The translations under genes and the position numbers were made by a program. The notes beneath the pieces are model-generated. The model ran no database searches and had not been told where the DNA came from. It saw only the letters and a program-made list of their open reading frames with translations. Below are positions 9,853-61,700 of a DNA stretch of 64,000 bases, piece after piece. The stretch covers positions 8,566,201 through 8,630,200 of the forward strand of contig JAUZTB010000081.1 in assembly GCA_034780895.1 (NCBI GenBank), given 5' to 3'. Source of the stretch: Rhynchobatus australiae (Eukaryota). Every line of letters starts with the position of its first letter. Position 1 is the stretch's first letter.

Positions 9853-10084
9853 CTCTTACTCAATATCCCTTCTTGTGGTATGGAAATTGTGCCGATCTGA
9901 ACAGTTGCCGATCTTATTGGAACTACATGTGTAAATTTCTTTTTCTCTTCCTTCTTTCCTGTTTTCTCCTTCTCATTCTTTCACACCCTCCTCCCCTCAC
10001 CCCAACTTTTCTCTAATCTGCCTCCCTCACGCATTTCAAAACTCCCCCCTCTGGAAGTCAATGGAGCATTCCTTCAAAAAAAGC

Positions 10085-10260
10085 CAAAATGGTTTCCCAG
10101 CCCCGTCCGCTGACCAGCCACCTCGCTCTCACCGTGCCAAGTACTTCGCTTCAAACCGCATCGAGGCAAAGCTTCGCGGAGACCCCCGCCACATGCGCCG
10201 CCACGGCCGCCACTTCGAGTTCAGTGTGGAAGGGGGAGGGGGTCAGCAACTGGTCTGACA
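10085..10260. promoter_or_regulatory. Second CpG-rich block, possibly an antisense first exon
   Basis: High CpG; minus-strand donor ACG|GTGAGA with exon end at 10133. Confidence 0.4.
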
Positions 10261-13200
10261 TCACAATGTCCTTGGTTTATGTTGGCACAGGACCTATGAG
10301 GGTGGCACCTAGACTATCATTTCCATTCTGGTAGATGACCTGTGCCGTGAAAAGAACACTCAAATTGGCTTGATGGGTTAGGGAGGGAAGAGGAATGGGT
10401 GGCGGGAATGGGAGGGCAAACAGGGTATTACACTGAACAATTAAATTTTTATAAATATATATATTTATATATAAATTGAATCAGGATCTGTGTTCAAAAT
10501 CCACCCCCACCCCCTCCCCATAGAACCTGGTAAGTGGGGTAATACCGTGGACTGGTATAGTGCATTGCTAGCCGGGTGAGGGAAAGAATGCTCCGTTTAC
10601 ATACAGAAGGGGGCAGGGGAGATGGTCGCACCGTGAGGGCCTTGTTGACCGACTCGGAGGCGACTAGCGAACCTTGGCTGGAACGGTGTCTTACGCCGCC
10701 TTTACCTCCGACAATTAGATNNNNNNNNNNCCGACAATTGAGGGCAGCGAAACATAAGGTACGAGAAAGAGGGAGAAATCCTTTAAGCTGCAGTATCCCT
10801 GGCTTTCAGAAGATCTGAAGGTCGTGGAGATGTGTGAATAGTTCCAATTTCCATTGAGTTGCTGTGTACAGGTTGATGGAGGTACTCTACACACACTCTT
10901 AGTTTTCTTGTTGAAGGTGGAATAACTGGTACTCTATACGAAATGAAACACAGGCCATTATTCACAGTGGTCCAGTCTCAAATTGGCAGTGACCATTTGT
11001 GTGGACTGGGGAATAAAAGGGCAGAAATTGGATCTTGTTGCACATCTCCAGCAGGCCAGCTATTTCAGAGCTGTCAGAAATCAAATCTACACAACATCTT
11101 CATGTGTGAATGTTCTCATGGACCTCTTGCAATTTTGCCTTCTCCCCACCATTAAAACAAGAAATGGAGAAGGTTTACTTATTAATAAACATTGTAGCTT
11201 GAAATGCCCCTTCTTGAAGAAGGGGTAAAAACTTTTTATTTTGCAGAGTCCTATTTGAGGTTGGGGCTCAGTGGGGTGGGTGGGGAGAAAGTTCAGGAAG
11301 TCTTTCCTGAAGAGTTCGTAATACTGAGGTCGCCATCTTACTTGGTGCAGCCACTACACCGAGATCATCTGTGGCCCCTGGACTGATTGTCCATCAGAGA
11401 GTCTTAAGCTAAGACAAGAAAGGTTTGTCTGCACAAAAAAATCTTTTCAAATTCGTCTGAGAAGTCATTGTGAGATTGTGTGGCTTTTTTTGTGTTTGCC
11501 TCTGTGTGTGTGTGTGAGTTTCTGTGCTTGTGTCCATTTGTCTCAACCAGTATTTCCCAGATAACCTGCATCTTGCCATTTTTAAAAATTCATAGACATC
11601 CCATGTTGTGTCGCTAGCTTTCAGTTTAATATGCAGAAGGTTAAATGTCCCTGAAAATTGGTCCTGGTATAAAGCTTTGCCACTGTGTGCCATTCAGAGT
11701 CACAGCTGCACAGACCAACTCCCTTAGTGAGTCCAAACTAATGTGAGTCTCGTGACCTACTTTGGATGGCTGCAATGAAATTTATTACTTCTGGGAATCC
11801 CAGAGGCCCACATCTTTGGGTTATTGTTACCTAACAATGCAACTTCCAAATCAGGCACGTCACTAAGTATTGTTGTATCATCCCAAGTAGCAACAGAGGA
11901 ACAACTTTAATTTAGGAGAGCCAGGGTTAAGCTTATGAATGGATTTCCAGATCCAACTCCCAGATCCAACCAGAAATATTGGATTCAGAAACCTTTCTTT
12001 TAAAAAGAAAACCAGGTTTTACGGCTTTCTTTTCCTCTTTCAGCTGTGAATGATCCTTAAGAAAAGAAATGAAAAACCTTTTCACCTAGGCCAGATGAAT
12101 TCTTGAGTGGTCCCTAATGAAGAACACTTATATTGTCCTCTTGTTTTTTGTACTCACCCTAAAAGAAAATAATATCAGTTTACCACCTGGTCTGACCAAG
12201 TACATGGCGACCCTCAGCAGCAGGTCCCATGGAGTTTTTGGGGGAGGGAAAGCAGATTAAACATTGGAGGAAATGTGAAGTTAATCCATGTCAATTGTAT
12301 AATCAGGCCTCCACTCATCCCCATCAGCTGATGGAGTCACAGACATTCCCATCTTCCTCCCCTTTGTTCCCACCTATAGGAGATTTGGCGAGGCAAGAGG
12401 TCTCATTGAGTTGAGGGTGGGGACTGGGGCTGTGGCTTACCTCTTTAAAAAAAAGCAAACTAATCCAACAAAACATGAACTTCATTATATCCTGTTAGGT
12501 TGAAAGTTTCGGAAAAAGTGTGTCCAAGATGTTGTGTTGAAGCTGGATTTCTGTCTGTATCGCATGTGTGTCAGCTGTCAGTCTGTTGCCCAGTAGTTGT
12601 ACTGCCTGGCTTGAGTTTTCTTTTGCCTTTTTTTTAAAAAAAAGTGTTTTTTACTGTGTTGTGCTATCTATGAAGTCTTACTGTATGACCAATGATAGAT
12701 TTGCAACTTGCTATTCTATCTTGCCAATTTAGCATTTTCTGTTGGATATCATTGGGTATGAGTACATTCAGTTCTTAGCCAGCCAAGTGAGTTAATGTAA
12801 CTCAAAGAAAAAAATAACTCTTACAATTTTTCAGAGTTGAGCTGTCATGCTGTTGGCCTTCCCCAAAATCTCTCTGTACTCCTTTGCAGAACTTCTGGTT
12901 AAATTAATGAGTGGCACGCTGGCAGCAGCTGAAAGAGACAACGTCATGTAACGAACATCAGAGAGGTCATGCAACTTAATTTAAGTCCTTTAAAAAACGA
13001 CTTGCCAGCTGCTGCAGTCTGCGTTGCTGTCCAAGTCAGTACTTCCCTTCTATCACTGAAGGATTGCAAAATACCTGACAGGACTTTGTGACACCAATTC
13101 CTTCAAATTCAGAAGCTGGCAGGAGTGGACAAATAGAACACTAGAGAATTTAAGTGCAACCCAGCACCTGCCTGTTTTGAACTGGCCTACCAGTTTGATG

Positions 13201-16200: not shown

Positions 16201-16992
16201 AGCAAAGATGTTGTAGATTGTTGGTAGATTTGATTCTTGATGCTATGAAATGTCCTCGTACCCTAGAATCATCCATCCAAAATCCTGCAGCAAGCACGCC
16301 ACCCATTGTGTTTGGTCTTTAATAAGTCCAGCCCTCCAATCAGGCTAAGTTTTAAAACATGCCCTGTTCTCTTCCCTTTGCTGTTTTATTTATTTTAAAT
16401 TTGTATTCATTTCCTACGGTTAAACTGGCAACAGATGCCTCATGATTCCATCTGCTTCCCCTTGCTGCCCGTTTTCACACAGCAAAGAAGCTATTTCTCT
16501 TCTTTGACTTTGCTTTCTCCCACCACTTGATATTCCATCTGTCCAGCCACTTACCAACCTTAAAGAATTTGTTCCACATCTGTGGGTTCAAAGCTGATTT
16601 GCACAGAGCCCACAGACAAAAGACTGAGCCCTGGTGGTGTCAGCAACAATTCTTTCCACCTGTCATGGAATGGTTTTGAACAGATTGGTAAGAGTGTCCT
16701 TAAATCCTGCTCAAAATGTCACTTGAAGCTATGAATATTCAATTTTCCAGACAAATAATCTGAAGTATTTAAACAATGCAATAAGTTTGTGTGCACAGCT
16801 AAATTGGAATTTATTAGCGAATATATTCTTTAATGCCTGTTGCCCCCGATTATAAATTTACTCCCTCATGTGCTGTTTTGAGGACTTGGCTTGGTTGCTC
16901 CAAGGTACAGAGGGGTTCGCCCTCCTTGGCGATGGATGCTGTGGCTTTAACATGGATTTCTTCCCTTTTTATATTTTATTTGTTTTGTTTAG

Positions 16993-17163
16993 GAGAGGCA
17001 GCTCTCAACGATGGGGGCCACCAACTCCCGGCTGATGAGTACCCTAACTCACATGAAAGACCGGTGCAGCGAGACCCAGCTGAATGGCGTGACGTCATCG
17101 CACCCTCCGCCGCGCCTCCAGATCACTGAAAACGGCGAATTCCGTAATGCCAGCGGCCACTGA
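16993..17163 (+). CDS. SYNGAP1: Terminal coding exon of Ras/Rap GTPase-activating protein SynGAP (alpha2-type C-terminus, 56 aa plus stop; partial gene)
   Basis: Long T-rich tract ending tttgtttag|GAG; phase-0 translation ERQLSTMGATNSRLMSTLTHMKDRCSETQLNGVTSSHPPPRLQITENGEFRNASGH*. ERQL...PPPRLQITENGEFRN...H matches recalled mammalian SynGAP alpha2; NSRLMSTLTHMKDR resembles paralogues DAB2IP/RASAL2. This frame is absent from the ORF track. Confidence 0.88.
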   Translation, partial: ERQLSTMGATNSRLMSTLTHMKDRCSETQLNGVTSSHPPPRLQITENGEFRNASGH

Positions 17164-59771: not shown

Positions 59772-61039
59772 ACCAGACCTGGGGGGGGGGCATTTCCCTT
59801 GAGGTGAATCACCCGGGTTCCTTTATGCCATTTGGCGTAAAGGATTTTCTGCAGGTTCAGGAGCCTGGGCCCAGACCAAGGGAACCCTCCTCTTTTACCT
59901 TTAAGTCTAGGTGCCTTTTTGCTGTAATAAGAAAGCGCAGTGTGTTTGAACCAGAGGAAGCGGTTTGGCTGAAATTCAATAATAATTGAATGTGTATGAA
60001 TAATAATAAACTCCCCATTATGATTCTTGACTCCCTCTGGTTTTGACGTTTACTGGGCACAAAGTGATGGTGGATAAGGGAACATCTGGGATTGACAATT
60101 CCCCAGGCTTTTCCTGAAATCTCCTGGAATCGACTCAGCTTAGTTTAGATTTACACCCAAGGGAAAAATCACATGGGTACTAATCATTGATCCCGAGCCC
60201 TGAAGAATAGGGTGCAGAGGTAGATGGACAGCCATCTTCTCCCGTCGTTCCATGGGCATTCACGGGTAGGGTAAAATCATTTAGCCGGGACATTTTACCC
60301 TAAACCACTCAGTAGGGAAATGATGGGGTTTGCTGGAGTTGCATTGGGCAGGTTGTTGAATTAGCATTCTGTCCAATCGCACTGGGATTTCAGACCAGAG
60401 AGAGTAAAATTACGTTTTAAAAGTGGGAAATGCACTACGAGCTGGGGTTAGATCAGACCACATCACAGAAGGGGTAGGATACCCGGTTCTAGGGAGTCGA
60501 GAACTGCTGGAAGCTGGTTGGAGGTCAGTGGCGGTTATCCTTGGGTGTTGATGCAGGGAGCGAATTAGACTGAACTTGGGAGGGGATGTAAAACAGGTAG
60601 AATTGCTTTTACCAGCAGTTACATACCACCTGTTGGATAGTTAGTGCTGGTAAAATAAGCAGAACAGGAAGTAAAACTTGTGTCCAATCTCATCCCCCAG
60701 TTTTCTCCCCTTAATGATAAAAATTAAATGTTGTGAAATATTCCGGCATTCATGGCACCTTTGTATGGTGCCCCTCAGGGTGTTGAGGCACTTTAGGGAG
60801 AGAGGGAAGGTAGGACTGGGACTCTACATGATATAGTCAGTTTACCTTCTGTATTTCCCCCATCTCCCCTGCACCCCCTGCCAGCCCCAACCCAACCCTA
60901 GAACACACGATAGGACCTGTCTATTTATAATCTGTTTGGCACTAAAGTGAGGAGAGGGGTTATATTTTCTGAATGCGACCGATTCACACTCGCCCATCTT
61001 TCGATCCATAGCTTTCAGAAATGGGGCGCAGAGGTGGAA

Positions 61040-61700
61040 GGACAGCACGGAATCCTAGCCGCTTTCTCCCGTTGACATATGGGGCATTTCGATAGCCATA
61101 GACACAAAAAAAAATTCAAAACGAAAAGAAAATAACTTCAAAATCGACGCAGTTCTGAGTCGACAATCGATAGCCATACATATATAAATAACGTTTTAAA
61201 ATTTAAAACAAAAAAAACACAGGCATGGCTAAACATGATTTGACGTTTGTATCATGTGACTATAATCTCTGTTGCTATAGTAACCACTGCCAGAATAATG
61301 TTGGAGGAAGTGATTGTACCGGTTTATGTTGTTCTGTGTATATATTTAACAAGGAGAAAACAAAAGCGTTAATTTTTCAGGTCTTTGATTTATCCATTTT
61401 AAATGCCGACTTTGTAATTAATCCCCCTCCTAACCCCATAAAATCAAAATATTTATACGTATATAAATGTGTATATATGTTGAATTTTTTCTCCCCACAC
61501 GTGTAATTAAGAGAATGTTGTTTGTATTGTAAATAACAACGATATGTACTGTACATAGTTTAACATATATTCCTGGTTGCCGTGACACCAGGGATGCTAT
61601 CTGATGCTTCTATTGTTGTGTTGTATGGGGGTGTGGTGACAGAATGACCTTTAATAAAGCAAAAACTTAACCTTTTACTCTCTCTGTCTTGCAGTCGTGG
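61040..61700 (+). terminator. mRNA-like 3' terminus with poly(A) signal
   Basis: AU-rich block free of recognisable repeats; four TGTAHATA motifs; AATAAA 61653-61658 followed by a U/GU-rich downstream element. Confidence 0.65.

Follow-up and report, generated by a model that had tools for sequence, protein, structure and literature searches.

The alpha1 and alpha2 tails of mammalian SynGAP are encoded in two frames of one exon, which are opened by acceptors one base apart (PMC9064290, PMC3621422), and the exon concerned is exon 21 in mammals (PMC9064290). According to the accessible text of PMC3621422, a single base causes the frame shift, and work cited there found that a mutant of the last residue of the QTRV tail loses the synaptic effect. 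QTRV is a class I ligand, and alpha1 makes up about 35% of the relevant junction reads in the accessible part of PMC7314543. The binding of SynGAP-alpha1 to PSD-95 has been described to drive postsynaptic condensation and plasticity, and ligand-mutant mice have been made (PMC7314543, PMC9064290, available sections). In zebrafish, syngap1b (X5) has an alpha1-like tail and syngap1a has none, as far as the available text goes (PMC11266194). GG acceptors have been described in a paper that mentions SYNGAP1 in its accessible part (PMC13149111). The available part of a preprint (10.64898/2026.05.28.727796) states that the dual coding of SYNGAP1, RASAL2 and DAB2IP is older than their duplication and that it is preserved in SYNGAP1 across jawed vertebrates; the exon is not named there. 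A literature search that covered few subscription papers yielded nothing on how SynGAP ends in cartilaginous fishes.

We analyzed a window of 64,000 nucleotides, i.e., the whole stretch of DNA under study, from the ray Rhynchobatus australiae, which contains the orthologous exon. As in mammalian SynGAP-alpha1, a second frame of 13 codons runs at the same offset (+1), and 5/13 of its residues are identical to the mammalian model P0050. In contrast, it ends in T-P-G instead of T-R-V, it lacks the SFPPW core, and no junction shifted by 1 nt was seen in the ray. Mammalian models enter the +1 frame either by the 1-nt shift (P0050) or after VEITM (P0025, P0206); unlike for the latter two, no second donor exists in the ray, the first 60 intron bases containing only the main GT. 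The ray-finned tails (zebrafish syngap1b X5, Polyodon P0077, Hemibagrus P0095, Carassius P0143) share with the ray the exon, the +1 frame and the T-P at positions -2/-1, but they end in V and have kept SFPPW. The models P0077, P0095 and P0143 enter the frame via an upstream cassette exon, which the ray lacks. The identity of the ray +1 frame to any alpha1 is only 4-5/13, and its T-P-G end does not have the S/T-x-V/L/I form of a class I PDZ ligand.

Identity of the gene and of its last coding exon

In two trees of the PH-C2-GAP-coiled-coil regions (252 and 575 columns, with an incomplete DAB2IP row) the window gene groups with SYNGAP1 with a support of 100, while the genes on contigs C69 and C76, the two paralogues, join named DAB2IP (97) and nGAP/RASAL2 (100), respectively. 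The trees thus rule out that the gene is DAB2IP or RASAL2 and bear out the SYNGAP1 orthology presupposed by the original prediction for this DNA. A PDB search with the gene returned GAP and coiled-coil entries only. On contig C81, the stretch from 10 to 163 kb ahead of the window holds the earlier exons, which encode the PH to the coiled-coil region. Another contig carries the penultimate exon of 88 nt (C2:95528159-95528275), probably as a result of an assembly misplacement. About 270 kb upstream, and on the strand opposite to the gene, a CutA1 match (C81:8135643-8135732, minus) mirrors CUTA, which we take to be the upstream neighbor of SYNGAP1 in mammals. This neighbor alone cannot separate the paralogues, because C69 has a second CutA1 match at a distance of about 0.5 Mb from its DAB2IP gene. 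The parts of the last exon are as follows:

16955..16992, + strand: polypyrimidine tract plus the canonical AG (16991-16992) that serves the alpha2-type last exon as acceptor, from the sequence and from reads and contigs
16993..17163, + strand: last coding exon of SYNGAP1, alpha2 type, with a main frame of 56 aa that ends NASGH-stop; assigned by its first 15 residues and by the trees
16994..17035, + strand: +1 frame RGSSQRWGPPTPG-stop, the positional counterpart of alpha1 without a class I PDZ ligand; from translation, null model and cross-species comparison
17029..17031, + strand: main-frame CGG codon (Arg), the silent third base of which sets Gly versus Val at the +1 end

Translated from 16993, the main frame reads ERQLSTMGATNSRLMSTLTHMKDR...ITENGEFRNASGH with a stop at 17161-17163, and its first 15 residues are identical in several sharks. 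The acceptor context is tttAG/GAGAGG. The exon has what characterizes SynGAP-alpha2: a canonical AG acceptor, a main frame that runs to the ITENGEF end, and spliced transcripts. It shares the ITENGEF end and the N-x-R-L-M helix motif with SynGAP-alpha2 and with the last exon of DAB2IP/RASAL2. From the latter it differs by a SYNGAP1-type ERQL start, by PPPRL, and by an ASGH end in place of SSC/SNC. Compared to the ray's own DAB2IP exon it is 51% identical overall and 9/14 identical in the stretch NSRLMSTLTHMKDR (counted by hand). The original prediction had stated that the main frame keeps a DAB2IP/RASAL2-like helix, and for the sequence motif this is correct; the motif is old and metazoan-wide, is present in numerous members of the family, amphioxus and lamprey among them, and has been eroded in bony vertebrates. 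In an extended coiled coil of the DAB2IP/RASAL2 type the helix would run through N-x-R-L-M-x-x-L. An AlphaFold2 model of a fragment of the skate protein P0003 is helical up to residue 145 (RLM), with a pLDDT under 50 for residues 141-164, and is unreliable beyond the motif.

The +1 frame was predicted to span 16994..17035 and to end in Gly, which is exact. Its stop is at 17033-17035, and a second TGA follows directly. The length of 13 codons and the position of the stop agree with alpha1, as had also been claimed, yet DAB2IP has the same, so that neither is diagnostic. One silent base separates the TPG-stop of the ray from the TPV-stop of paddlefish and carp. A sequencing error at the Gly codon is ruled out: record 3 of the contigs of run X1, another run, spans 16991-17143 without a single deviating letter and has the identical CGG, the Gly thus being common to the ray and the organism of that run. 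No difference is listed for the region of this codon in the raw reads of X21-X23, three RNA runs included by their species label (depth about 4-7 at the exon). The ray sequence itself is ordinary, an alpha2 exon plus a likely idle second frame.

Splicing of the exon and alternative tails

All identified junctions are at 16993 (5/5 listed X21 reads, plus contigs of X1 and X6). None at 16994 is listed in the 8 runs, in which junction reads are few and contigs drop 1-nt variants; the junction data are shallow, with 27 raw reads in total from tissue that is not recorded. The comparison of the two acceptors suggested in the original prediction thus shows use of 16993, and none of 16994 at this low depth. 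In run X1 the contigs that enter the exon have depths of 34.4 (direct junction), 18.6 (piece ending at 10758) and 4.3 (retained intron), compared to an exon depth of 58.4, a hint that little space is left for a +1 junction. Four AGs are present from 16941 to 17030, and the +1 frame is opened by none of them, those other than the acceptor giving shifts of 0, +2 and 0; a +1 start at 16994 therefore needs a GG acceptor. The letters of the agG context noted in the original prediction are thus present, but the canonical AG opens the main frame. Skipping of the 88-nt penultimate exon would also shift to the +1 frame, and would do so through canonical sites. Four further features, all on the + strand, concern alternative ends of the gene:

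10058..10258, + strand: shark/ray alternative terminal exon of 66 aa, SMEHSF...EGGGGQQLV-stop, from similarity and column conservation
10759..10764, + strand: donor GTACGA, which one X1 contig (depth 18.6) links to 16993
17144..17149, + strand: internal donor GTAATG, from one X1 contig (depth 58) in one run, which exits after 17143 into the distal exon
61012..61095, + strand: distal exon that serves as an alternative end 44 kb farther downstream, from similarity to Mobula and Stegostoma models

The exon at 10058 is 95% identical to the Hypanus model and 73% identical to the Heterodontus model. In five elasmobranchs 43/66 columns are invariant without any indel, the last nine residues are invariant throughout, and the tail is found in 6/40 chondrichthyan entries. 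Its first half is weakly similar to the cassette that feeds alpha1 in ray-finned fishes (shuffle p 0.003-0.18 in 10 comparisons). The piece ending at the 10759 donor may be the end of a 3' UTR part of this exon, and a loose end in X1 matches 10701-10756 once the duplicated edge of a gap is discounted. This gap of 10 N with its duplicated edge is at 10708-10740 of the window; contigs of three runs cross it without the duplication, two of them 11 nt shorter. Close by, six bases at 10524-10529 (+), preceded by a pyrimidine tract with an AG and followed by GTAAGT, could be a micro-exon.

The distal exon at 61012 reads LSEMG...YGAFR-stop when joined to the penultimate exon, and in another frame KDSTES-stop when joined from 17143. 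It is identical in 27/27 residues to the Mobula model P0180 and in 20/26 to the Stegostoma model P0182, and in the annotation of both species its counterpart directly forms the last exon, in a frame that differs from that of the 17143 join. With 95-100% identity to models from stingray and devil ray, the alternative exons mark the organism as a batoid. Two further candidates were rejected. A frame-shifting cassette suggested by a loose end in run X13 is a repeat with 413 matches in the assembly, and a Hypanus/Hemitrygon tail ending in PDYL matched many repeat copies and no conserved exon. The repeat with at least 413 copies (L069-L073), which presumably represents the end of a DNA transposon, supplied a piece that is spliced to the last exon in the organism of another run (organism E). 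A small exon about 42 kb past the window (L043:2394-2435, on C81) is part of shark/ray models in which SynGAP is fused to a downstream PRY/SPRY (A33-like TRIM) gene. These fusions comprise 17 entries from three species and are either read-through products or annotation artefacts.

The other tails of the ray gene end in QQLV (10058-10258), GAFR and STES (both from the 61012 exon) and ASGH, and none of them is class I. The pattern PPW[VI][QL]QTxV-stop had no match in the incomplete assembly G000, and therefore the TRV-type tail elsewhere in the genome, which would have contradicted the original prediction, was not encountered by pattern in this assembly. Among the retrieved entries an alpha1-type tail is present in 7/36 from mammals and 9/57 from ray-finned fishes, and in 0/40 from chondrichthyans, which represent 12 named species and include 17 read-through fusions with the neighboring gene and one truncated entry. 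Absence from annotation is weak proof, because 0/101 entries from non-mammalian lobe-finned fishes or tetrapods have alpha1 either; the weight of its absence therefore rests on the three chondrichthyan +1 frames that can be read. The syngap1b models P0094 and P0122 of a catfish and a characin have a further class I-like tail, TSAV or TTAV.

Chance resemblance and constraint on the two frames

The resemblances between the ray +1 frame and alpha1 were compared with a null model in which the main-frame protein was fixed and synonymous codons were redrawn 200,000 times, with codon usage either uniform or taken from 738 codons of the ray gene. The W at codon 7 is forced (P = 1.0), and the Thr at -2 (P 0.50-0.70) and the identical stop (P 0.45-0.52) are frequent. 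Only R-G-S is uncommon (P 0.04-0.16), and its bases adjoin the acceptor, so that shared descent explains them. All four features together have a P of 0.01-0.05, and a full T-x-V-stop would arise with a P of about 0.03-0.04. The resemblances are weak evidence and mostly do not exceed chance. The +1 frame of DAB2IP in the same genome, RNELSPWMLLMPV-stop, also has 13 codons and the W, and it lacks the Thr at -2. Length, stop and W are therefore by-products found throughout the family, because they are forced or likely from the main frame and are present in DAB2IP.

Conservation between species gives a similar picture. Ray and bamboo shark are identical in 14/14 residues of the main frame and in 9/13 of the +1 frame, the latter being taken from the NCBI model P0179 of Chiloscyllium plagiosum and the main frame from its congener. 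P0179 reads the +1 frame after a skip of the penultimate exon and ends with KGSSRRWGPPIPD-stop (PIPD-stop). In the chimaera (three entries, one species) Met-Asn in the main frame forces a TGA at +1 codon 7. For the ray +1 frame, these three chondrichthyan lineages thus show no sign of selection. The relation is reversed in the pairwise comparisons of mammal, paddlefish and cyprinid, with 7/14, 7/14 and 6/14 identities in the main frame versus 9/13, 9/13 and 10/13 in the +1 frame; for the paddlefish the two frames are from two gene copies, and for the cyprinid they are from different species. Judged by these comparisons, it is the main frame that is constrained in cartilaginous fishes, and the +1 frame in the mammals and ray-finned fishes compared. 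Proline is absent from the 30 residues before N-x-R in 5/5 chondrichthyan proteins, while 9/11 bony vertebrates have 1-7; alligator and gecko also lack it.

The original prediction had taken RGS, W, Thr and the stop as preserved ancestral alpha1 features. These are largely dictated by the main frame and present in the DAB2IP paralogue, they have not been kept in bamboo shark or chimaera, and no use of the 16994 acceptor was seen. It is therefore improbable that the ray +1 frame preserves an ancestral isoform.

Gain or loss of the PSD-95 ligand

We think it probable, though by a long way not certain, that the exon is spliced at the AG into alpha2, that the +1 frame is an unselected by-product, that cartilaginous fishes have no alpha1, and that T-x-V was gained on the stem of bony vertebrates. 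The proposed mechanism starts from the arrangement of the frames: every +1 codon is composed of the last two bases of one main-frame codon and the first base of its successor. Through this arrangement the N-x-R-L-M motif, which is old in the family, holds the +1 frame one or two silent changes away from T-x-V-stop, the distance that is observed. As long as the main frame is held, the +1 frame would be free to drift, as seen in the three lineages of cartilaginous fishes; once the +1 frame is held, the main frame would change and acquire prolines, as seen in mammals and ray-finned fishes. A relaxation at the end of the coiled coil would have accompanied the gain, and both this and the direction of the change as a gain are what we infer. 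The statement in the original prediction that the motif "had not yet been overprinted (or was lost)" holds true insofar as a class I ligand is lacking in this frame; the different synaptic anchoring of SynGAP that it deduces would be a putative consequence.

The opposite course, an alpha1 ligand in the ancestor of jawed vertebrates (or of SYNGAP1, DAB2IP and RASAL2) that was lost in cartilaginous fishes, the TPG-stop being a decayed T-P-V-stop, seems rather unlikely to us. It would fit with the single silent base between the two ends, with the RGS common to ray and mammals, with the MPV-stop of the DAB2IP +1 frame, and with the ancient dual coding in the family that the available part of the preprint proposes (10.64898/2026.05.28.727796). 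However, it requires two events, one gain and one loss, ahead of the split of chimaera and sharks, and it has to account for the low identity of the ray frame to any alpha1, the missing SFPPW core, and the DAB2IP frame without Thr at -2. The latter frame has kept PW and the terminal V and is 5/13 identical to paddlefish alpha1, so PW and V may have come down from an earlier ligand. A single gain on the stem of bony vertebrates makes for the shorter history, because the ligand is missing from ray, bamboo shark and chimaera, and Thr-2 is missing from DAB2IP. Gain is the more parsimonious course, though unproven: its direction depends on a parsimony argument for which the outgroup is poor, because the lamprey protein P0257 was placed with a support of only 43 and was dropped as SYNGAP1 outgroup, and the last exon of RASAL2 was found neither in the 100 kb that follow its penultimate exon nor by a genome search.

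A real and selected non-PDZ isoform of elasmobranchs, made via the GG acceptor or the skip of the 88-nt exon, is very unlikely in our judgment. The skip needs only canonical sites and has been annotated in the bamboo shark, the stop of which is at the same position as in the ray; but this is 1/40 chondrichthyan entries, 4/13 residues differ between the two species under an unchanged main frame, the early stop in chimaera is forced, and no such junction is listed in the 8 runs. A stop well upstream of a junction generally leads to nonsense-mediated decay. If the 17143 donor were used, the +1 stop would be 108 nt before the junction, which predicts this fate. An idea that is compatible with the gain on the bony-vertebrate stem is that shark and ray SynGAP is anchored by the GGGGQQLV-stop exon as a putative non-class-I PDZ ligand. 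The invariant end, the Val after a glycine linker and the occurrence in several chondrichthyan entries speak for such an anchor, whereas the definitions of class I and class II PDZ ligands exclude Gln at -2, and none of five chimaera entries has this tail; we regard it as unlikely. The wider combination, in which the PSD-95 ligand would have been overprinted in bony vertebrates, with different splice routes in mammals and ray-finned fishes, and alpha1-free sharks and rays would use QQLV as a non-canonical scaffold ligand, is likewise doubtful.

If cartilaginous fishes indeed lack alpha1, the SynGAP-PSD-95 interaction can be dated to the stem of bony vertebrates, and sharks and rays would offer a natural comparison for alpha1-free synapses. 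The exon would also be a compact vertebrate case of overprinting, in which the switch of the conserved frame is visible within 14 codons.

The family has another common end. About 25 of 45 members with the helix motif (P0245-P0392) terminate in S/T-x-C (15 SSC, 7 SNC). They range from proteins of invertebrate type through to DAB2IP and RASAL2; SYNGAP1 has lost this end. A wider definition of class I PDZ ligands would admit S/T-x-C, and it might be a candidate for an older PDZ-type ligand.
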